A DNA stretch of 64,000 bases from Kondoa subrosea (GCA_039545335.1 BCIN01000003.1:992001-1056000), one strand, 5' to 3'. Positions 46,401-61,870 are shown, counted from the stretch's first letter. The notes: a model not told the origin generated them from the sequence alone. Numbers and translations: made by a program.

Positions 46401-46880
46401 ACAAGGTATGTTCAGACGACACAAAAGTCTGCTATGCTCTAACGTTGGATTCCATAGCGCTTTGCCAGAGCTGATAAAGTATGTCCAACATGTCTCGCGG
46501 ATTGCACTGTGCTTTACATATTCTTGCAGCGAGCAAAACTGCCAAAGTGGATCAATCAGTACATCAATGAAGCAGCTACAAAGTACGTGTATTTGCTGAA
46601 ATGAAGTATCTTGCGCTGACGCTGCTGGTGCAGTCTTTCGACCGACGTTGCCTTGGTCATGTCGAAGCGTTTTTTGCGAAGTATGGCTCAACCTTTCGAC
46701 CAAAACCAGACGGGTATCAGTTTGTGGTCGCTCGAAGATATCGAGGCGAAGCAGCAGCAGCAAAGAGACCAAAACATGCATCTTGACAAAGCTGCGCCTG
46801 CTCCAGATGAGAACAACTATTACGAGGGACTAGAAGATGCAGCACTAGTAGAAGGGATGATGGCTATCGATGAGATGTAA
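43436..46880 (+). CDS. RAD3: TFIIH/NER DNA helicase XPD (Rad3/Rad15/ERCC2), many exons including a 10-nt micro-exon
   Basis: [32 protein letters not shown], Fe-S region [56 protein letters not shown]. Confidence 0.98.
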
Positions 46881-46900
46881 CTACAATGTAAATGTGGAAA
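46788..46900 (+). repeat. Left copy of ~115-bp direct repeat (last ~30 codons, stop and start of 3' UTR of RAD3)
   Basis: Aligns to 50343-50461; 60 nt identical (46824-46883 = 50385-50444). Confidence 0.95.
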
Positions 46901-47142
46901 TGCAAGTGACGGTTATGAACAGGCTCTTCTACTTCTGCCCCAGACTTCCACCAGACCTGAACAGCTGAATCAGGTCAAAGGGAATCGCAACCAGGAGAAT
47001 TTGCCTCTGGCTCCTTATTATCGGGTCACCAAGGCGATCGTAGAAGAATGCTTCAAACGCTGCAACCTTTGGGAAGGAAAGATAACAATAGCAATCAGCG
47101 ACTAGCTCAGCGATGTAACAAACAGCAGCCAAAGATAATTGG

Positions 47143-48352
47143 GTCGAAGCGAAGGGTCAAGTCGACAGAGTTTGCGCACTTGAAATGCCAACATCAAGGC
47201 TGCAAAGGAGAACGCACGAGAGGAGCTTCTACAGGCTGGTCCGAAGGTAGCAAAAGCTACAGAGAGCACATCACCCGAGAAGCTAGCGTTTTGTTTGCCG
47301 TAAGATTTGTCATCGACGGTAGGTATAGACGGTACAGAAGAAATGACTCGGGCGTAATTGCACGAATAGAGGCTTCTCGCACTTGTAATCACAAGGCGAT
47401 ACAGCAGGACGCGCACATGGCTTCTATGGGTTGGTTCAAGGTAGCAAGCTACTGGGATCGCGGCACTTGGAAGCAGGCGTTGGTGATGTGCAAGTCTCGA
47501 TGCGAAGCAGAAGAAGATATCAAGGGAGACAAGAAAGTAAGCAGACCTACCCTGTGATGGAAGGATTCCAAAGAAGCTCCAACCTATGGACGAAAGAAAG
47601 CAGCAGAAATCAGCTACCAATTAAAAAGAAATGACTGATGACGAGAGCAGACGACCGCATCGGGCAAAGTTGCATGACCCCGAGGCTTCCAGCACTTGAG
47701 AGTCTTCAAGGCAGGAAAGCAGAACGCGGGAAGGGCTTCAAGTTTAGTTGGTCCAGGGGTAGCAAGCTACTGAGGGCACGTCACTCAAGAAGCATGCGTT
47801 GTCGATAGGGGAAGCCCGATGCGATCAAGCAAGAGAAGGTAACACGGCAAACAAGCTGAGAAGGAGACCTACTCTTAGCAAAGGAGTGGTTGAAAAGACA
47901 TCCCAAGTCTCAAGTTTACAACAAGTTGATAGGTGGCGACCTTTATGGGAATGCGCTGAAGGCTATCGTCAAGTCTAATACCTGAATGTTGCTGCTATGC
48001 GCAGCGTGTAACTGTTTCTGCCAAAACGGAGCCGGCTGCTTTCAGTAGCTCCGACGCTCACAGGGGATTGTGAAAGAGGAATTCGCCTGTGGACAAAAGA
48101 AAGCACGTGAGCCAATAGTCCTCCAAGAACGAAGGAACAGAAGAGCAAAAGATCGCGTCGGACGGATTGCACGGAGTGAGGCTTGTCGCACTTGAAAGGA
48201 CAAGGCAGCAAAGGCAGACGCATAGAGGGCTTCTATGGATTGGTTCTAGGGAAGCAAGCTTCTGGGAGCACGTTATTTGAGAAGCATGCGTTATCACCCC
48301 GCAAAGTCCAAGACGATCAACAAGAAAGTAGGATGCGGACAAAGAGACCTAC
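47143..48352 (+). ncRNA. Array of four diverged ~150-175 nt structured repeats (putative ncRNA units), family unknown
   Basis: Shared anchors GCACTTG (47176, 47379, 47692, 48188), CAAGGC, ACGC, GCTTC, G(T/A)AGC-AA(AA)-GCT(A/T)C, GAAGC, GCGTT. Nested helices are retained through compensatory changes and G-U pairs on the + strand. Frame-breaking indels between copies argue against coding. Confidence 0.65.
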
Positions 48353-48599
48353 AACGTGCAAGAAGCTTGTTGTCCATATTGTTGCAAGAAGAGAAGTGCA
48401 AGAGCGGGTGAGAAGAAGCGTCAAAGAGGCGAAAGTATGGATCAGAAAGAAGCAGGATACTTAGAAAAATGCACGATTTTATTCACTGGAATGTAACGGG
48501 ACACCGCTCGGAGCCGAGAACAGCACACACTAAAGCCCAGGGCGGTGGCTCGACAGTCCAAGGTGCACCAAAAGTAGTCCGTTGGTCAGTTTCGAAAGG

Positions 48600-49840
48600 G
48601 TAAAGAAAGAGCACGAGTAGCGACGCGGAAGAAAACGTTCAGACATAGATGAGGGATAGATACAGTAGCAGAAGATGCAGAGGACGACGCAACAAAGGCA
48701 GAAATGTTCAATCGAGCGCAATCGCATTCCAGTCGGATCTGCGCATGACTTTCGAAGGAGAATGAAAGGTGATTGCACTGGAGAGATCCACTGCTCCTTG
48801 ATACAGCCAGGGCAGACAATAGACAATGCATATCGAGCTAGAACATCGTTCAAGTGCAACCTCGCTCTGTTTTCCATGAGCGAAAGTCATGCACTGTGTT
48901 TTCGGTACTTTGTGGCCTTCTGCAGCAGCAGCAGCAAGCGCAAGACATGCTGCGGATCACTTCAAGGCTCGCTAGACTCTGATCGGAGCTGACCTCTTGT
49001 GTTTGCGAAACATCGAAGTTGCAACATATCAGATCCTAGACACTGGACTGGAAGCAGGCCTGAGCAAGCAAGATATTGTGCTGATGCTCAGCAGAGCCTA
49101 TGGACCCATTCTCGAGGCAATCAGAGCTTTCCTGCGCGCTGCCTGCAAAACGGAACAAGGCACTCCATCTGGAGTATTCAGCAGTCTTATTCTTCAGCTG
49201 TTGCACTTCTTCTAGTCTTCTACCTTCTTAGCCGATGGTCTTGTTCCGTTAGTCGCGATACAGGCTTTTGGCAATCTCTTTACTATGCGAAGATACATGA
49301 ACATGATGCGCTTCGAATTTCGAGAGGATGACGGTGCAATTACCTATATGAAAGGCTTTTGCAGATCATCTTGCGGTTGTACGTGCACTTGACGCGCCAG
49401 CGCACGAGCTCAGGGCTGATTTCTAGAAGTGGACAATCATCCTGGATCTAGCTGTCGTTTGGTATAGTGCAGTCGCAAAGTTCAGCGCTCCTTCTCATGC
49501 AATTCAAAGCTGAAGAAGACCAAGAATGGGCAACAACTTCACTTCGAGCTCATGCAAACTCAATCAGCGCATCGTGCTTTTGGTCAAAGTTGCGCTCCAA
49601 CGAAGCTAGCAGCCAAATGCTTGAGATTGGTGCTTGAGATTGGAAATTGCTCTCTCTCTCTCTCAGGGCTACAGAATTCAAGTTGTTTGATCATATCGAA
49701 CCAATGGAGCAATCAAGCAATACCTACAAGGCGAAGATTGGCACGCAAGCATCCACTCCAAGACGGAGCGTTGATGTATGGCGACGGACGTAGCCCTATT
49801 ACGAGCGACACCTGGAGAAGAGGGTTGATTAAGTGCTAGA
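48600..49840 (+). pseudogene. Decayed ORF remnant of unknown family
   Basis: Protein-like frames interrupted by stops (e.g. ...LQLLHFF*SSTFLADGLVPLVAIQAFGNLF..., TAG at 49213-49215) and an intron-like gtacgt...ctgat..tag at ~49379-49426. Confidence 0.35.
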
Positions 49841-50342
49841 ACAGACACTAGCTAATAATGATTGCAATTCATGAAGCTCATTGATTTCCGCTCTACTGCT
49901 TCTTGTTTGAATGGCTCTCTCATTGTTCGCCTTCGTCATCCTCCTTTCTAGTCCATGCTTTCGCGTTCTTTAGCCGGTCTAATGCAATGCTCAATGCAAA
50001 GAAGCAACAGGCTGTCCTTCTCCACTGGATATCTGTGCGCTATCAAACTCTATATCTCTATAAGTCGACAACAAGCAGGTTTCTGAATAGCACTATGGGG
50101 ACTAATTGCTTCTCTACAAGCATCTCTGCCAGCTAATTTACTACAGAACCGTTATTCTGCCTTCCATCTCTCTACTCATCAAGTAATATAACGTCATCCT
50201 CAGCTCGGCGAACCGCTTCTCCTAACGCTGCGCAAGCTTTCAATGTACTCTTATAACCGATGCCACTCTGTATTCTCCACTGACAACAGGAGACAACACG
50301 AAACAAGAAGAAGAAGAAGGAAGAAGAGAGAACAAGAAGAAG

Positions 50343-50461
50343 AAAGCTTTGCCTGCTTCAGACGAGAACAACTATTATGGATATGAGGGACTAGAAGATG
50401 CAGCACTAGTAGAAGGGATGATGGCTATCGATGAGATGTAACTATAATGTAAGTGTGGAAA
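50343..50461 (+). repeat. Right copy of the RAD3 3'-end direct repeat (orphan gene tail)
   Basis: Encodes [32 protein letters not shown], versus RAD3 [30 protein letters not shown]; no RAD3 sequence precedes it. Confidence 0.95.
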
Positions 50462-50468
50462 CAAGACC

Positions 50469-50650
50469 GGCAAACTGGATGCTGACTAATCACTAGGCCA
50501 TTTCGAGGGGCAAATGGCCTGCTGACTAAGCGCATCGAATATCAGAGAGAGGGCGAGCTAGACATATAACTGATCTGAAAGAACTCGGATAGGAAGCATA
50601 GATAGGAAGCATAGTCTGCAATAGAGTCATATACTGATCTATGAAAACTC
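50469..50650. repeat. Cluster of short direct and inverted repeats (candidate recombination or binding site)
   Basis: TGCTGACTAA x2 (50480, 50520); inverted repeat AGGCCATTT/AAATGGCCT (50495-50520); CATATA(A)CTGATCT..AACTC x2 (50563, 50628); tandem ATAGGAAGCATAG x2 (~50589-50614). Confidence 0.6.
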
Positions 50651-50673: not shown

Positions 50674-53600
50674 CTATCGCCTGTTGACATGTGTCGCACA
50701 TTTCTTCCCTAAACCGATCATCACTCTGATATCACATCCGTGATAGTCACATATAGGTGACGGTTTGCCTTTTCGCTGCTGGTACAAATCAAGGCATTCG
50801 AAGGAGCAGAACTTGGCCTTCTTGTTGCTGCAACGTTGATTGCATGCGGAAGACTCGCAAATCTTTTTCCCGTTTCCGTCGAGCTTTGCAGCCAAGGAAG
50901 CTTGTTGGTAGCAACGACTGCACTTGTTGCCAGCTCCCCGAAAGATCCTGGTACACGAACACATTTTCTGGGGTTTTTGAGCGATCACAGCTGTAGGACT
51001 TTGTTGAGCTGATGACGAAGAAGGTCTCTTGCTAGATGTAAGAGCTGTCCGATGCTATTAATTGTAGCCAATGAAATGAAAGACTGCTGACCTTTGGCAC
51101 CACCGGCTTTACCGGAGTTTGCTTTATGATGAGATTTGCACCGACAAGGGCAGAGCGGAGCACAGTCTGAGGCGTTACTGAATGCTGGACAAGCGCGTTC
51201 TCTTGCAGAGACACACACTTTGCAGCCACAGTAGCAGCTGGCAAGATCATGACTCTCAGTTGTGCATCGACACAGGAAAGCTTTGTCGCCCCAGAACCAC
51301 GAAGAATGAAAGCTGTTGACGCTTGTGAACCGACCAGCTAGAAATTCTTCCCAAAGACGTGCTTTAGGAATACATAAGATGGGGAATACGGGTGAAATAG
51401 AGTGCAACTGACCAACTCGATTCCTGTCATCTATCCCAGATCGACCCGTTTGAAGTACGGTGGGAATGATGGTCTTGATATCGCCTTGAAACGAGGAAGA
51501 TTGCATCCCAGTGATGAATTTGCTCGAGCTTGAAACGCGATTGTAAACCAGGTCGGACATCGTTTCGTCTCCTTCCTGGAAAATGAGAATAGGACAGACT
51601 AGAGGTAGGCATTTGGCCACGCTATAGTATTGACCGTTGATCTGCAAAGCTTGTTCCATGCGTAATCCCATGTCAGCGAAGTAAGGTGAGAGGAGAGTAA
51701 AATCGGCCGGGTGCCATAAACAGCCAACAAAAGTCTGACATCGACGTGCTGCCATGTTTTTGATTTCTTCAAGATTTTCGACTGTGCGCGCAAGCCGATC
51801 TATAGAGGTGAACAAGACTAAAGAATCTTCATAATCGTCTTTATCTAGAGCAATCTCTACTGAATTTTCAATGCAAGCGGAAAGAGCCTCCAGAGTCAGG
51901 ACTTCACACTCAATTCCGGCGGGAACAAAAAGACGTAGAAATTCTCTTTGGCGCATGATTGAGTTGGAGCTTTCCAAAGAGGTACGAGATAAGATGACAA
52001 TACGCTGAAGAATATGATCGGTGCATACTTGCCTGAGCTGGCTTTTGATTTCGGCAACGAGAGCCAGCAGAGCTGAATCTTTCTCTCTGTATTGCTGAAG
52101 AACTCGATCCATCAGGAGAGCGGAATCCGTATAGAAGGCTTGCTCTTGAGAAAGAAGCAGGGCGTTCTTGAGGTGCAATCGAATAAGCGCTTCGTTATCC
52201 ACAATTGAAAACCAGGTTTCTGGACCAAGCTCTTGATCTTCTTCCTCATCATCATCATTGTGAAAAATACCATTCGCTTTGATAGCCTGATCACCATCCT
52301 TTGCAAGCGCTTCCAAATCCTCCTTCGTAAAACCTCGGGCGTAACAGCTAATACGATATCTTCGTAGGGACTCCATCATAAAAGGCAAATCATCTAATCT
52401 TCGGGTTAATCGATCAATATTGGAGAAAAGGATCATTGATCCCGGTTGCAAATTCGAAATCATTGTTGTGAAGGCTATTCGATCTTCCAAGGCATGACGG
52501 AAACTTGAAGCATGTTCATGAATTGTCGACAGCTCAAAGACATTGGCGAAGTCTTTTCGAAGTACAGAAGGGGGAGATGTAAGAGACGAAAGGATCTGGC
52601 GAGCAACAGATTCGTTTGCCTTGGTAGAACGATCTTCGTCCGATGTTCGTGCGTATACGACGCATGACGGTTGTCTGGCCACTGATGGATCGAGAGGAGG
52701 TAAATCGCTAAAGTCGAAGAGGTCTTCAGCAGGTTCAGAATTGACCGAGAATGCTTTTCTCAAGTGTGGAGCAATGATTCTATCGACCAACACCCTTGAA
52801 AGCATGCCATCTTCTCGAAAGAGCTTGCGTAAATTAGAAGAATAATCCAGTTGCGTATGCTTGCCAAGATTGAAGAGATCAGGATCCAGAAGATGTACTT
52901 CTTCCAGAGCGGTCGATAATTCATGCGCGTCATCTTCATGGAGCTCTTGAGGAGAGAATATATGAGGGGAGTGACCAAGCAAAGGCTGATGCACAACCAG
53001 AACTTGAAGCTTGCCAGAGCTGACGAGAGCTATATCTTTGGGTAGAGGACAAGACACTTTGTAGATGTATAGCTTCTCTTGAGCCATCCCATTACCCAGC
53101 AGTACTCTTTGGAGAGGTACCAGATTGATGTCCGGTAGGTTTCGCCAGTCCTTATAATAGCCAAGAAGCTCACTAAGCAAAGACTTCAGATTGTAAACTT
53201 GAGGAGTCGATGCACCTTACTCGAAGAGCTGCTGCTTCTCAGAACCTTTCACTTTATCTAGATCAAATTCTTCATCTTCTTCAAGCATGTTCATATTGTC
53301 TCGCAAGATCGCTCTCAAAGTATTTGCAGGACAGCCAGTACATGCTCTGAACGAGGATATTGACTTGTTGATGCTTGCAGAAATGGCAAAGAATTCATAT
53401 TCAGCATCAATAGCTTGGCCATGTTGAAGACTGATCAAGTAAGATTGTGCAAAATCGCTATTGCTTTCTGTCAGAATTCTTGAGCCACGGTGACGGTCTG
53501 TTCGCACGCCTCCAAAAATGCCACCAACTGGCCAATACTCGAAGGTAGTAATGGTATCTGATCGTCGAAAGACGTTGATAATGCAAGGTATTCTTCTCAA

Positions 53601-54563
53601 GTTCGCTGTGACCTCGTCCAAAGAGTCTTCAGATATATACTTGAAGTGATGGAGGATAGAGACCAGATGTAAATCATCTATTTGCTCACAAGAAAGTATT
53701 GAGATGCCAATTGAGTCGGTGAGCATTTGGGAAAGAGAGGTAGAAGCAGTGGAGGAAGGAGCAAGGGATGAGCGGCTAGTAGAGCTACAGGATGGTTGTT
53801 GATGCTTTGATGAAAGAGGTGGTCGAGGGGTTGAACGAGGTTGAGTAGCTTGAAACGTGGTTTCCAACAATTCAAAGATAGCCGGCGTGTAATGACTATG
53901 TTCTCGTTTAAGATTGATAATTGGCGCTGACTGTTCTTGAGCGTTTATGTGAGTGATTGTAGTGATAATCGCGCCTTCTCCTTCTTCGATGATTTCGCGG
54001 ACATCCGCAATCTGAATAACGCAGCTGAGAGCTTTTGCTAGACAAGTGATTGCCAATGTGTCGGCCCAAGTACTGGTCTTTCCCATCTCCCAACGCCAAC
54101 GAACTTGCAATTCATCAGCAGTCCAGTTCTCCTCCGTTTCCGCCCACTCTCGAAACATTTCATCATATCTTGTGGTGAATAATCCAAGATCTTGAGCCTG
54201 CCAGTCAATGTCGGCCTGGTTGATGCACAGATTTCTTAATTCATCCGCTAAGTTTCGATCTACGTTGCCCGAAAGTGCGAACCCGACAGAGGTAAAGAAG
54301 CAGGAACCATCCGGAGGAACTTCAGCTCTTGTTGTGACTGATATCAGATCTACGCGATAATCTTCTTCCGGTATTAAAGCAGTGTTGGGTTCAACCGCAG
54401 CATTTACTTGAAAGAGGTTACGAAGCAGAGGATAATCTTGTCCTAAGTGCCGTTCGTCTAAAGAGTAAGAGCATCTCGCTTCTTGTCGAGAACGCTTCGA
54501 AGTTGAATCTGGCAAAGAAGGTGAACAAGCTCTCTTGCTAGGTGTAGCAGCGGGGAAAGCCAT
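50674..54563 (-). CDS. ~1247-aa multidomain protein: OTU-like cysteine protease + two tandem serine-recombinase (resolvase-like) domains + Cys-rich putative Zn-binding tail
   Basis: OTU motifs EVPPDGSCFF, TWADTLAI, HSHY. SR1 CVVYARTS...ESVARQ...NIDRLTRR. SR2 IVILSRTS...SIMRQREFL...SIDRLART. Predicted GT-AG introns 53220-53173 (48 nt), 51412-51362 (51 nt) and 51091-51045 (47 nt) join three ORFs into one 3744-nt frame. Confidence 0.8.
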
Positions 54564-55503
54564 TCTATCAGGACCTGAACTGTCAGCAAAGCTGATTAGC
54601 TAAAGCCAAGAACCTACGTGTCCTAATACAGCAGCTTGATAAGTAGCGAAGGCGAGCGTGATCTGCAATCTAGATTTGAGTGTTGTACATCGTAGGATAG
54701 CTAGAAAACTGACAAGGTGCTTGATTGATGCAGTGCGAACATACGAGGCTGAGAAACGCGCAAAGCTTGAACGAGCGGTTTCGCAGATGAAGAATAAGCG
54801 CAAGACCATTGAAGGTTCTCCAGAACAACCTGTGAGTGTGCGAAAGCTTGACAGAGGTCTTCGCTAAGCATTGCAAACACATCTGAGGCATCGCTGAGCT
54901 CTTGACATAGCCCTAGCGAATCTTGCAAGCCAAATCATCGCTCCGCGTTTCCTTCCAATTTCTTCCCTCTTCCTCTGTGGCTCTTGTCATTCTTTTCGCG
55001 TGTGCAGATGCAGCACGCTGGCATGTTGTTGCGTGAGTCGCTCAATCAAGCGACGGAAGAATAACGAGCATTTGATCTATCGTCCTCTTTCCTTCAACTT
55101 CTTTTGGGCTGAGCAGCGACAGCTTTCATATGATCTCTCTCTTCCTTTCCATTGCATCACTTTTGGGAAGTCCGGGTATAAGGTCGTTACGCTGTTGGGA
55201 CAGGCACGGCTTGAATCGAGTGGTGGTGTGATTCGTCGGCTAACGGGCAACAGCCGTGTCACAAAACCTATCTCGTCTGAAAGCTAGGACGCTGTTCTGT
55301 CCGCTGTATCCCCAGCAGATTGATTCTGGACTCCGGGAATTGGTGCAAACCTGGATTGTATTTGGTTTTGTTTTTTTTCTGTATTCACATATCTTTGCCT
55401 CTGTCTCGATGACAATCGCCTCTTGTCGATAGTGGCCATCCAATTCGCTGTATGTTTCACGCAGATCGATGTCTGCTTTTCTCATGTGATGATCTTCTGA
55501 AAG

Positions 55504-56730
55504 CATCACCATGGACGACGAACCTTCTATCACACGGCTCATGGTAGTCTAGCATACTTCCTCTTCTTCTATTTGATTGCGCAAGTCGGATGCGGCATCT
55601 TTCTCAAACCTTATGAATGGAAGATTGATTCGCGACCTCGCGCTTAGCGCATAGTCAGTTCGGCAAGATCTTTCCTGTATTGAAATGCATATAGATTGTG
55701 CTTGGTGCTATAACAGCTCTCGGATGTAAGCTACCTTCGTCTACTGTTCGCCTGGAGCTGACAATGGTATTTAGTCTGTATGTTTGAAGCAATAACTTTT
55801 CCTGTCGTCTTGTTTATGAGACTCGACGTCTATAGGCTTCAATGATCCACCTCCAGATGACTACCTGGGCCAATGTCTTGCTCAGTGAGCTGTCTGATAA
55901 CCAAGTCAACACTTGAAAGTGATGCCTCTTTCAGCTTCATCATGGGTAGCGCCTTTCAAGCTTATGGCATCTGTCTTCTCATCATGATAAGATACGGCCA
56001 ACCTTGGCTGGCGAAGCGAAAGACTAGCCAGGATTATTTGGATAGCTGGATGATCATGTGCTGGGGTATTGTCGGTCTCTCATCACTTTCGTCGCATTCG
56101 AGCCTTATAACGCTTATTAGATCAATACCTTTACGATGCACAATTTCTTTGGCTCAGAATCGCATTGGTTGCACAAAGGTGGGCAATATTGCAGTGTATA
56201 TGTGACCAATACATTGATTCCAACTATGCAGCATACGACGATGGTAAATTAGGCAAACTCTATACAGCATTCATGATCGGCTGATGCTTGAGCTTTAGGG
56301 TGTCGTCTGGTGGATTTCTGGCGCTGCTGGAATCTGAATGGGAAGGAACAGCCAAAGAAACGGTGAGTGATTACGCAACGCTGAATGATCAAAGCTCAGA
56401 TTAATTCCAGTCATTCCTGCATTAGTCATGGGTACAACAGGTCTAGCGATGGGATCTCATGCACAGAGTGATATGCTAGCTACGGTAAATCTACTTGCGA
56501 TCAGTATTAATCTCGCTCAATCCCTTTGTCAGATGGTTCACAAGATCTTCGGCATGACTTTGGCGCTATTTGCAGCAGTGCGAATAGTAGAAATTAGCTT
56601 TTTGCTCAAAGACAGCCATGCTGTTCAGTCACCTTCTTCTTTCCACTATCTTTCGCCCCTACAAAAAAAAAAATTGTTAGACCGTAGTCTAATCCACTCT
56701 GATCATGCGTGTCATCCTTGTGCAGGGGCC

Positions 56731-56762
<32 letters not shown>

Positions 56763-56970
56763 TTGTGTGTACATCAAAAGATGACAAAATCCGGAATGTT
56801 TGCAGGCCCCTATATATACTTTGTTTTGCAGAGCTGTAGCTTTTACTCTGCGAAGAAGATACGAGGAAGGCTGAGGATCTGATGAGGGCAGAGCGAGAAG
56901 AGCGGCCGCTCAGATAGACAATCCGCTCGACTGCAAAGACAAAAGCTATCTGGGAAACGGAGGAATGAGG
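55504..56970 (+). pseudogene. YTP1: YTP1-like (DUF2427/Ytp1) membrane protein, apparently 5'-truncated with premature stop
   Basis: HHHGRRTFYHTAHGSLAY, DDYLGQCLA..FIMGSAFQAYG, QHTTM|GVVWWISGAAGI*MGRNSQRN (TGA at 56335-56337), IPALVMGTTGLAMGSHAQ, MVHKIFGMTL. An A11 run at ~56663 and further stops lie near the end. Confidence 0.7.
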
Positions 56971-59059: not shown

Positions 59060-60114
59060 ATGACTACGCAGCACACAGTATCAGTAGCAGAGAACTTATC
59101 AGGTTTATCGCACCACTCCAGACCAGGATAACGCTGCTGACTTGAACTCCGCTGAATCCAGATGAGGATGTCGTTCGTATTGGAGCAATGGTTGCCAAGG
59201 CGTTCGGTAGCTTGTCTCCCGAGATAGATCGTGAGTATAGTGGTCACTATCCAATGATCATATCGCTCATCTAGGGCATCTCCAGCTTTTGGAGTGCAAA
59301 TTCATGGATGTCCAGCAAGTTGTTTGGCAAGCTGCATCGGTCATGGATCTAATCTTCTGTCTCTTAGTATCGGGACAATGTCGAGCGATGGGAAGGTCGG
59401 TCATCTAAGCTTTTTCTACCCCGCAATATACAAACTCATCTTAACCTTTTGCTATAGCTGCATTTCGCGCCAGAGTCGCAGTGGGAAGAGAAGTCGGTAC
59501 AATCTTCACGCTTGAAGACAACAAAGGGGTCGCAATCTGCTTTGGTCCAGGAAAGAGTTTTGATCCCAAGGCTGGCGGAAAATTTGGCGAAGAAGATAAA
59601 GCTTTGCAAGCCAAAGATCCAGCTCGAGATCATTTTCTAGATAAAACAGTAAGGTTACAACTTGTGTATTGTGAATTACAGCTGAAATCCGTGTGAAATC
59701 AGCTCTGGCCCGCTATACATCATCTCGATTCAGAAGTCTTTCCCAACGATTTCACCAAGAAGAACTTTCATCTCTTCATCCTCGCTGTTGACGTCGATGC
59801 GCAACGTCAAGGTTGCGGAGGTGCACTGATAGAAGCGGTTGCTAAGAAGGTTAGCTACCTGAGTCAGTTGCGCTTCGCAAACACTCATGTTGTGCTAGGC
59901 TGCCGAGCATGATTGCGATGTGCTACTGGAAGCGAGCACGAAGCCGAATGTGGGCAACACATCTCCTCATTAAGTGTTACTGAGCTCAAATCTTGCGTCA
60001 CAGGTCGCTTTCTATAAGTCAAAAGGCTTTATACTCGAACGCGCCGGCAAAATTCCTGCTTTCCAGGAAGGAACTCTTGATTGGTACTGTATGCGTCGGC
60101 CACGAAGTCAGTGA
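59060..60114 (+). CDS. GNAT acetyltransferase (tandem paralogue 1)
   Basis: FHLFILAVDVDAQRQGCGGALIEAV, DVLLEASTKPN|VAFYKSKGF; multi-exon. Confidence 0.88.
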
Positions 60115-60638
60115 AGGAAAGATATCCGACTATTTTTGATGCGTTCATTTGAATTTGTATGTGTGCGAATCTTACTACAAGCGCGTTGCTGCCAGCATAC
60201 TGTATTGACGGTGCTGCATTCGATCTATTCTGACTCTCCTATCTCTCTGATTCTTCTGTTTCTTCCTCTCCCCTTCTTCTTCTTCTTCTGTCTGATCGTC
60301 ATAAGACTATGACCACCGCGTTCAAGGTTCGTCTTTCCTCTCTGTGGTTTCTCGCGTAGCGGCGAAGGCACGAAGAATATGAATGCGCACAACATGGCAG
60401 ATCAGTTAGTAAGCACAAGAGACCCAAAGAAGCGAGAGGAAAAGGAGAGCGCTAGCGAAGAGGCTCAGAACTAGCTCGACTACATGTGAGACTCGGATGT
60501 ATTGGGAAATCAGATAACGCGTCTCGTGACCAAAAATAACAGTTGCGGACTGCTTGCTCAGCGAGCAGCGGAGCTAATCGAAAATCTTGTAATCTTGACT
60601 TCCCGCTCGCTCGCTTCCTTGTTCCATAACGTCCAAAT

Positions 60639-61669
60639 ATGGCTATCCAGCATAAAGTATCGGTTGCAGAGAATCTATCAGGTAATTACAACTCTGCCTT
60701 CGATGGTGCTGTCTGTTCAAACTCCGCCGAGGCAGACGAGGATGTAAAACGGATTGCAGCGATGGTAGCCAGATCCTTTGGTAGCCTATCGCCAGAGGTA
60801 GATCGTAAGCATGATACGCATTCTGTGGCCTCTCCAGCTCAGAGAGTGCGCAGGATTTGGGCAACAGATTAATGGGTGTCCTGCAAGTCCCTTCTGTATA
60901 GCTTTTCTATCTACAAAAGCTAATAGCTGTCTCAGTACAAGGGCAATGCTGAGCGATGGGAAGGTCAGTCATTCTTTCGAGCATTGTTGGTTGGGCATTG
61001 TCAATTTGGGTATATAGCTGGATTCCGCGCCAGACTCGCAGTTGCAAGAGCAAAAGGCACAGTATTCACGCTCGAAGATAACAAAGGCGTAGCAATGTGC
61101 TTTGGACCTGGAACAGAGTACGATCCTACGGCTGGTGGACACTTTGGAGAGGAGGACAAAGCCTGGCAAGCTAAAGATCCTGCCCGACATAAGTATATAG
61201 AGGAAGAAGTGAGTCCACTTGATTAAGCGGCTGTTACCTGCTGATCGGTCTGGGTCAGCTCCTTCCTGCTGTACATCGCATGGACGATGAAGTCCATCCG
61301 AATGGATTGACCAAGAAAAGTTGGCAGATCATGATTCTCGCTGTTAGTGTTGATGCTCAAAAGCAAGGATGCGGGGGTGCATTGCTAGATGCAGTTTTTA
61401 AGAGGGTGAGCCCTTTGTCGATGTGCTTTCATGGGTCATTCATCTGTCAACAGGCTGACGAACAGGGCGTTGATGTTATTCTGGAGGCGACCACTGAACC
61501 TAACGTGCAAAGTCTCTCTTCCGCGAACGTTCTCAAGCTGAAATTTTGAGCGGTGCAGGTTGCCTTCTACAAATCTAAAGGCTTCCAAATCGAACATCCT
61601 GGTAAATTACCCGCGTTTGGAGGTGGAACTGCTGATTGGTACTGTATGCGCCGGCCGCGGACTCAATGA
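60639..61669 (+). CDS. GNAT acetyltransferase (tandem paralogue 2)
   Basis: WQIMILAVSVDAQKQGCGGALLDAV, DVILEATTEPN|VAFYKSKGF; same intron positions as paralogue 1 in the alignable exons. Confidence 0.88.
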
Positions 61670-61870
61670 AAGGCATTGCGTTTCTTTTACCGACGACTTA
61701 CCGATTGTTGCACGTTCTTGAGCATCGCTTCTATCGAACGGAATATAGTGTATCGCAGCAGAGCTATGACAACTGTGCTCTTATGCTGCTTTCTCTCTTT
61801 CTCTTTTCTACCTTCATCCTATCTTCAACATCTGCTTTGATTCGGAGGACAACATTGTTTTGTCTTCACA

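Follow-up and report, generated by a model that had tools for sequence, protein, structure and literature searches.

The DNA analyzed here is a 64,000-nt window from Kondoa subrosea (GCA_039545335.1, BCIN01000003.1:992001-1056000; positions are counted from its first letter). It is fungal chromosomal DNA, with an open reading frame (ORF) for a Fungal_trans domain, a U6 small nuclear RNA (snRNA) gene, and housekeeping genes with short GT-AG introns. On the + strand, a RAD3/XPD-type helicase gene with the Pfam domains DEAD_2, HBB, and Helicase_C_2 runs from about 43707 to a stop at 46880; we take it to be RAD3/XPD from these domains and from the resemblance of its last exon to yeast Rad3. No credible protein gene was found between 46880 and 50985 by ORF, Pfam, or similarity scans. 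An array of four repeated units, A to D, occupies 47136 to 48352 at the start of this gap, on the same strand as RAD3/XPD, the end of which lies approximately 260 nt upstream. This array is probably a new array of structured noncoding RNA (ncRNA) modules, as predicted from its sequence. The coordinates of the units and of the features around them are collected in Table 1.

The four units are true paralogs. The nhmmer matches among them have E values of 6.6e-44 to 1.1e-58 (four matches in the window; four more, at E 0.55 to 8.5, are at chance level), the blastn identity between pairs is 70.8 to 76.4%, and the mean column identity of the four-unit alignments is 67 to 73%. A covariance model built from the four units (R1; 180 positions, 39 pairs) and run over both strands of the 64 kb returns them at 143 to 173 bits, and the other 45 of the 49 listed matches score at most 12.4 bits. 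An invariant GCACTTG block starts at 47176, 47379, 47692, and 48188, which reproduces the irregular spacings of 203, 313, and 496 nt given in an earlier reading of this DNA made from its letters alone (here called the sequence-only reading). The coordinates and motifs of that reading are all present, including GACCTAC at 47544, 47866, and 48346. Its remark that indels break the frames also holds, with indels of 1, 2, 4, and 6 nt and a homologous motif that stands in different frames in A and B. Coding sequence was rejected on this ground: the ORFs of the array (198 aa on the + strand and 172 aa on the − strand) place homologous motifs in different frames, and the alignment, the ORFs, and inspection by eye agree that the array is not coding. 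Copy number was read from the contigs of two DNA runs of one sample, which may be the source of the window (a contig set of approximately 18.8 Mb). Depth over the array is flat and equals that of a single unitig (145.9 in run X1 and 55 in run X2), so this contig set contains the array only once at a likeness of 80% or more.

Table 1. Coordinates of the array units, their tails, and neighboring features in the window
Feature	Coordinates	Strand	Basis and remarks
Unit A	47136-47324	+	Covariance model, 143.3 bits, E 1.8e-32; nhmmer, E 6.6e-44
Unit B	47340-47514	+	Covariance model, 167.4 bits; core intact
Unit C	47652-47834	+	Covariance model, 173.2 bits; complete fold, 10-bp closing helix
Unit D	48150-48325	+	Covariance model, 172.3 bits; complete fold, double change in apical stem
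Purine-rich tail of B	47515-47550	+	Alignment; holds GTAAG, ends in AGACCTAC
Purine-rich tail of C	47835-47872	+	Alignment; holds GGTAAC, ends in AGACCTAC
Purine-rich tail of D	48326-48352	+	Alignment; holds GTAGG, ends in AGACCTAC
RAD3-tail copy 1	46788-46900	+	Repeat search, blastn; RAD3/XPD C-terminal codons plus ~20 nt of 3' flank
RAD3-tail copy 2	50343-50461	+	Repeat search, blastn, tblastn
OTU and serine-recombinase (Resolvase) gene	50985-54599	−	Pfam PF02338, E 1.5e-6; PF00239, E 3.7e-10

Given the alignment of the units, RNAalifold predicts a common + strand fold with a side hairpin and a long arm. The side hairpin in full pairs GCACTTG with CAAGGC and is extended by GCUUCY with RGAAAGC, and the long arm comprises ACGC/GCGU, GCUUC/GAAGC, a G-U-rich inner helix, and an apical GGUAG-CAAG-CUACU hairpin. 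When slightly longer units are folded, a closing helix of 10 to 12 bp joins the two unit ends, with a short helix (UUGC/GCAA) inside it, beside the side hairpin and the long arm. In unit C, the closing helix pairs 47656-47665 with 47814-47823 through ten Watson-Crick pairs; the counterpart in unit D differs at two positions, in each of which both partners are replaced, and covariation is seen in this distal closing helix (helix 1), which the sequence-only reading had missed. The helices named in the sequence-only reading (CTTG/CAAG, ACGC/GCGT, GCTTC/GAAGC, and GTAGC/GCTAC) are nearly invariant, and RNAalifold predicts every one of them. The apical GAAGC/GCTTC stem of D, for which a compensatory change had been claimed, has indeed changed on both sides (three units have U-A and one has A-U), and the apical loop AAAA described for unit A is there. 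The outer helix of the same reading stood in part: its strands are present in B (GAGGCTT/AAGTCTC) and C (GGCTTCC/GGAAGCC), but in different registers, and as a feature of each unit it failed, being poor in A and D by eye on the alignment. It competes with the distal closing helix and with the extension of the side hairpin and is an alternative pairing only.

The consensus fold is far more stable than that of column-shuffled alignments in which conservation and gap patterns were preserved (n = 300). On the + strand, its energy is −31.0 kcal/mol compared to −11.8 ± 3.0 kcal/mol for the shuffles (z = −6.5; 0/300 as good), and a longer alignment of B, C, and D gives a z of −5.6. Over the 39 pairs (156 cells), 94.9% of cells are paired, compared to 36.5 to 38.7% in six controls in which the partners were slid by 1 to 3 columns. 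Changes on both sides of a pair occur in six pairs and seven cells (shuffle means of 2.8 and 3.0, with the observed values reached by 5/500 and 0/500 shuffles), and the covariation score is 0.239 compared to 0.157 after shuffling, with none of 500 shuffles reaching the observed value. Invariant columns make up 53 of the 78 paired columns and 19 of the 116 unpaired ones (Fisher P = 2.6e-13), and the copies differ pairwise at 17.5% of paired and 52.5% of unpaired columns. The picture drawn in the sequence-only reading, of a constant base-paired scaffold with fast-drifting loops on the + strand, is borne out by the shuffles, the pair counts, the G-U pairs treated below, and these column differences. 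Purifying selection acts on the base pairs of a + strand molecule in all four copies; the loops have drifted almost to saturation, and the copies are very old.

This pattern bears on the possibility that the array is what remains of a structured element, either mobile or retroposed (SINE-like or nonautonomous; SINE, short interspersed nuclear element) that was duplicated in tandem, its fold inherited and without a present function for the host. Each unit does consist of a structured head and a purine/A-rich tail, A and B look partly decayed both in their single folds and by eye, and the array opens a 3.56-kb segment that is poor in ORFs and lies between the copies of a direct repeat. The neighboring gene has an OTU domain, and OTU-like proteases occur in Helentron transposons according to a review (PMC6431247). 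Neutral decay, however, should be even, which the paired and unpaired columns are not, and in the six pairs changed on both sides pairing was kept. There is no other copy of at least 80% likeness in the contig set, ARAGORN found no tRNA-like head, the 5S, 7SL, and tRNA families of Rfam are unmatched, and a T run does not follow units B to D. The SINE-like relic suggested in the sequence-only reading is thus weakened by the selection on stems in four copies and by the lack of a further copy at this likeness; we retain it as a rival, though an unlikely one. A SINE or tRNA-derived retroposon in the strict sense was rejected, as a tRNA-, 5S-, or 7SL-like head was not found, the window holds four copies, and depth is flat at 80% likeness or more.

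The strand of the folded molecule is indicated by wobble pairs. G-U pairs had been reported for the + strand, and they fill 17 cells there, compared to 3 cells with A-C, which would be G-U on the − strand; the paired share is 94.9% on the + strand and 85.9% on the − strand. Composition does not account for this asymmetry, as the + strand is not poorer in A and C than in G and T. The + strand of the array is purine rich (GC skew of +0.14 to +0.21 and AT skew of +0.17 to +0.31), consistent with A/G-rich unpaired regions.

The same counts speak to whether the units might act as DNA, either as folded single strands or as cruciform or dyad sites in duplex DNA that serve recombination, replication, or protein binding in the manner of attC or res sites. 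All units are imperfect, nested palindromes with a recombinase gene nearby, and G-T wobbles are tolerated in DNA hairpins too. Double-stranded sites would be expected to show no strand bias, whereas the wobbles here are asymmetric (17 versus 3) and changes on both sides have kept pairing. A dimeric DNA-binding site would also not be expected to consist of three different inverted repeats, nested and variably spaced, and the fit to attC is poor, with spacers of 30 to 330 nt that hold no cassette ORF. We consider a role as folded DNA highly improbable. An integron attC array in particular was rejected: attC sites accompany tyrosine integrases and gene cassettes, whereas the enzyme here is a serine recombinase and the spacers of approximately 30 to 330 nt lack a cassette ORF.

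Several observations weigh against a functional + strand RNA. The alignment beats its shuffles on the − strand as well (−20.3 kcal/mol, z = −3.3, 1/300 as good; z = −4.8 for the three-unit alignment of B, C, and D), so the strand call comes mainly from the G-U count. The structure was derived from the four sequences on which it was tested, which inflates the slid-partner control, and with four sequences from one locus the covariation amounts to a handful of independent events. The most diverged copy, A, with its AAAA apical loop and a shortened tail, has a poor closing helix, and B lacks part of the 5' strand of that helix (relative to C, by eye). Folded singly, A (z = +0.34) and B (z = −1.23) do not surpass their shuffles; D reaches −60.3 kcal/mol (z = −3.37; 0/200 shuffles as good) and C −63 kcal/mol (z = −2.09), and the minimum-energy fold of C differs from the consensus fold. 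No promoter, terminator, or processing signal of the array was identified; a scan for bacterial-type promoters and terminators gave shuffle-level results, the method not being applicable to a fungus. Finally, no homolog of the units was found in the metagenome, viral, and prokaryote collections scanned. In the metagenome scan, a pattern for the 5' half hit 17 loci, about the chance number by our own rough estimate, and none of the 17 is a homolog: their best covariance-model score is 13.7 bits (E 0.072), and at one locus, L011, nhmmer matches the pattern stretch alone and the 3' half is absent by eye. The 3' half pattern had no hit in prokaryote genomes or viral contigs, and the 5' pattern had none in viral contigs.

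No known RNA family matches the array, and the sequence-only reading had recognized none either: at gathering scores, Rfam 15 has a single match in the window, the U6 snRNA at 56680-56785, and none in the array. With E values up to 10, the region from 46800 to 48700 has one match, in the spacer between C and D on the − strand, to BjrC1505 (16.1 bits; gathering score, 50). This match is at chance level and is caused by a hairpin in that spacer. The hairpin, at 48021-48053 on the − strand, is G+C rich (CGGAGC...GCTCCG) and is followed by TTTT on that strand. ARAGORN found no tRNA-like gene, and the 5S, 7SL, tRNA, small nucleolar RNA (snoRNA), and microRNA (miRNA) families have no Rfam match in the array region. 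The ribozyme array once proposed found no backing, in that no Rfam ribozyme matches at E values up to 10, and by eye the core of small self-cleaving ribozymes (CUGAUGA...GAAA) was not found at the three-way junction. Box C/D and H/ACA snoRNAs were rejected, since inspection by eye of the alignment of all four units showed no box kept in register and Rfam gave no snoRNA match; the pairing of the 5' and 3' unit ends with each other is, moreover, unlike H/ACA RNAs. Literature searches turned up no report of an array of this kind, of fungal OTU-serine recombinases, or of a serine-recombinase element in fungi.

Behind the scaffolds of B, C, and D lie tails that alignments show to be homologous to one another, with AGACCTAC invariant in all three. 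As RNA, a tail is approximately 30 to 45 nt long and purine rich, holds GUA(A/G), and ends in AGACCUAC. By eye, the GUA(A/G) motif could pair with AGACCUAC in C and D, while in B the two are too close. GUA(A/G) is the Nrd1/Seb1-type motif that occurs downstream of yeast small RNAs; we regard this likeness as a lead and not as a result. Being mutually homologous, the tails are not foreign spacers.

On the − strand, GACCTAC reads GTAGGTC, a good 5' splice site, so that the units might instead lie in introns of a − strand transcript. That GTAGGTCT is invariant in B, C, and D within an otherwise poorly conserved spacer would fit, as would an ATG at 48385, which by eye precedes the splice-like site of unit D by 25 nt. 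Yet no conserved branch site (CTRAY) or 3' splice site was found on the − strand at the far ends of the units, every exon join attempted by eye from the ATG at 48385 met a stop, and the introns would exceed 200 nt, compared to approximately 50 to 110 nt for the RAD3 introns here. It is the + strand that carries the fold with its G-U pairs, and there the motif also makes sense, since by eye it can pair with an upstream GGUA or GUAGG in C and D. Splicing of this kind is most improbable, and a − strand spliceosomal intron or introner-like element was rejected as a candidate: GTAGGT is shared by B, C, and D, but branch and acceptor sites are not conserved.

The segment that begins with the array is bracketed by a direct repeat of the end of RAD3/XPD. 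The repeat covers approximately the last 31 codons and has 89.1% identity over 119 aligned positions, with an 80-nt core at 96%; the second copy has a 6-nt insertion and is preceded by a branch/acceptor-like site (CTGAC...CAG). In tblastn, a 71-aa ORF at 50226-50438 matches 46722-46877 with an E value of 1.2e-13. The two copies enclose the 3.56-kb ORF-poor segment, at the start of which the array stands. A unitig covering 46854-50414 in the source run is exactly one period of the bracket, and the source-run contigs over the region have flat depth, no joints, and no excised form. Such a bracket resembles the outcome of a Campbell-type or site-specific insertion in which the target gene is restored. 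It is little diverged (4 to 11%) compared to the near-saturated loops of the units (52.5%), suggesting that the array is older than the bracket.

Nothing credible was found among the ORFs of the 3.56-kb segment: the best Pfam match is DUF7651 (E 0.0097; 15.9 bits versus a cutoff of 27), no paralog was found in the window except for the RAD3 tail, and Atlas yielded a 0.75 lead only. Compared with longer proteins in the protein collection, RAD3-tail copy 2 has no relative at E values up to 0.01, which suggests a poorly sampled lineage. Just after this copy, an 8-bp hairpin (GGCCATTT...AAATGGCC) is found at 50496-50519, flanked by a 10-nt direct repeat, TGCTGACTAA, at 50480 and 50520 (50480-50529).

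Beyond the bracket lies the recombinase gene. Two − strand ORFs, 53217-54599 and 50985-53216, form one gene encoding an OTU domain followed by a Resolvase catalytic domain, and by eye the in-frame TAA between them (53217-53219) falls within an intron of approximately 48 nt (GTAAGG...TTAG). By eye, the gene possibly extends to about 50700, there being a Cys-rich stretch downstream of the long ORF. It is single copy by depth. Its protein has two relatives at E values below 1e-5, one from an assembled public run and one a hypothetical protein of Rhodotorula paludigena, and a comparison with PDB sequences gave a chance-level match only. The 3' end of the gene lies 2.6 kb from the array, on the opposite strand and with RAD3-tail copy 2 in between.

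Such a neighbor raises the question of whether the array provides an RNA cofactor, a guide, or a bridge-like RNA for the recombinase or, in a variant, whether the RNA is cargo of an integrative element that the enzyme mobilizes. A serine-recombinase gene 2.6 kb away would suit either version, as would a constant scaffold with variable loops. Moreover, the array is the first feature inside the 113- to 119-bp RAD3-tail bracket, as in integrative elements that restore their targets, and an array older than the bracket could have come as cargo. The sequence-only reading, which favored guide- or bridge-like RNAs, had asked whether the loops match the RAD3 tail, and the comparison gives this no support, the complementarity of loops and tails to either repeat or its flanks being at shuffle level. 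At k = 10, there is one match to the left repeat and flanks (0.6 expected) and none to the right (1.1 expected), and at k of 11 or more there is none. Across the window, the longest complementary match is 15 nt and AG rich, and nothing stands out. The recombinase itself lies outside the bracket on the other strand, and the tails of the units are homologs of each other and not spacers. In the 52 ORFs scanned, Pfam showed neither a TnpB/Fanzor-type family nor a reverse transcriptase; a diverged Fanzor could be missed in this way, and at distances above 20 kb several long ORFs are unmatched in Pfam. No serine recombinase is known to use an RNA, which also counts against a cofactor. The coupling of array and recombinase that had been proposed is therefore unsupported, given the distance, the strand, the intervening tail copy, and the lack of loop matching, and a cofactor or cargo RNA is very doubtful. 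A bolder form of this idea is also very unlikely in our judgment, namely, that the 3.56-kb segment is a nonautonomous integrative element whose target is the 3' end of RAD3/XPD, which brings the tail along so that the gene is restored, and which is moved by the OTU-serine recombinase, with the four modules as the RNAs or folded DNA that are recognized.

In the reading that we favor, a single unclassified structured RNA module on the + strand was copied long ago to give the four paralogous units, and we put the probability of this reading at roughly 0.5, with the same value for the array acting as a functional (putative) + strand RNA. Each module of approximately 175 nt would have its ends brought together by the closing helix, followed by the purine-rich tail and then AGACCUAC. 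The array would be made as one + strand RNA polymerase II transcript that either starts downstream of RAD3/XPD or continues from it. Two modes of action can be guessed at. The transcript might be a multimodule platform, with every fold binding the same protein, or it might be a polycistronic precursor from which trimming releases four stable small RNAs, each protected at its ends by the closing helix. We prefer a platform or precursor to a guide, since the variable parts seem to be free of constraint and not directed at a target, and the guide or bridge reading is unsupported.

Among known systems, mammalian NORAD and bacterial CsrB/RsmZ resemble the array in holding several diverged copies of a short structured module in one noncoding stretch, with the structure of the module conserved while the linkers drift. 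The modules here, with approximately 175 nt and a three-way fold, are much larger than the CsrB hairpins and have no sequence relation to these RNAs, and the array is a putative RNA only. The yeast snR72-78 snoRNA cluster and plant MIR395 likewise have tandem paralogous structured RNAs on one strand with irregular spacing of a few hundred nucleotides. As in such polycistronic small-RNA clusters, a common precursor is possible in the array, and the terminal stem could protect the ends. The array differs from them: by eye, it has no C/D or H/ACA boxes in register, it has no Rfam snoRNA or miRNA match, and its apical hairpin is its best-conserved part, the opposite of what is found in miRNA precursors. 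The bridge RNA of IS110 and the omega-RNA of TnpB/Fanzor are also structured ncRNAs beside a recombinase or transposase gene. However, they are single copy, they abut or overlap the protein gene, and their loops or 3' guide match target and donor, whereas the array has four copies, stands 2.6 kb away from an opposite-strand serine recombinase, and does not match the flanking repeats. Furthermore, a DEDD enzyme as for bridge RNA was not found, the neighboring enzyme being a PF00239 serine recombinase. The retron msr-msd RNA shares with a unit the end-closing helix, a small side hairpin, one long hairpin, and a length of 170 to 250 nt; the array differs in its eukaryotic host, its four tandem copies, the absence of an Rfam match, and the absence of a reverse transcriptase from every window ORF of at least 130 aa.

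Elsewhere in the window, the U6 snRNA gene (56680-56785, − strand, 85.8 bits) lies beneath a + strand ORF at 56389-56781 with a match to a YTP1-like family and is thus antisense to that gene or inside its intron. At 55426-55971, the source runs contain second, diverged contigs (26 differences and 7 gaps over 218 nt), with doubled depth and a loose end at 55426, where a repeat having further genomic copies begins. Direct duplicates of approximately 660 nt at 59453-60115 and 61013-61670 (68.6% identity), accompanied by another pair at 59060-59238 and 60639-60812, are probably a tandem gene duplication.

The bracketed ORF-poor segment beside a rare spliced OTU-serine-recombinase gene leads to the second, bolder hypothesis set out above, which, if true, would describe a eukaryotic serine-recombinase element with a structured nucleic acid component. 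Should the array prove silent, it would still be a clean case of base-pair conservation without a known product. If it is transcribed, the array would represent a new fungal family of structured RNAs with an unusual layout of four ancient tandem paralogs kept foldable by selection; few large structured ncRNAs are known in fungi apart from the housekeeping set. With covariance model R1, the question is directly testable on fungal genomes and transcriptome sequencing (RNA-seq) data.

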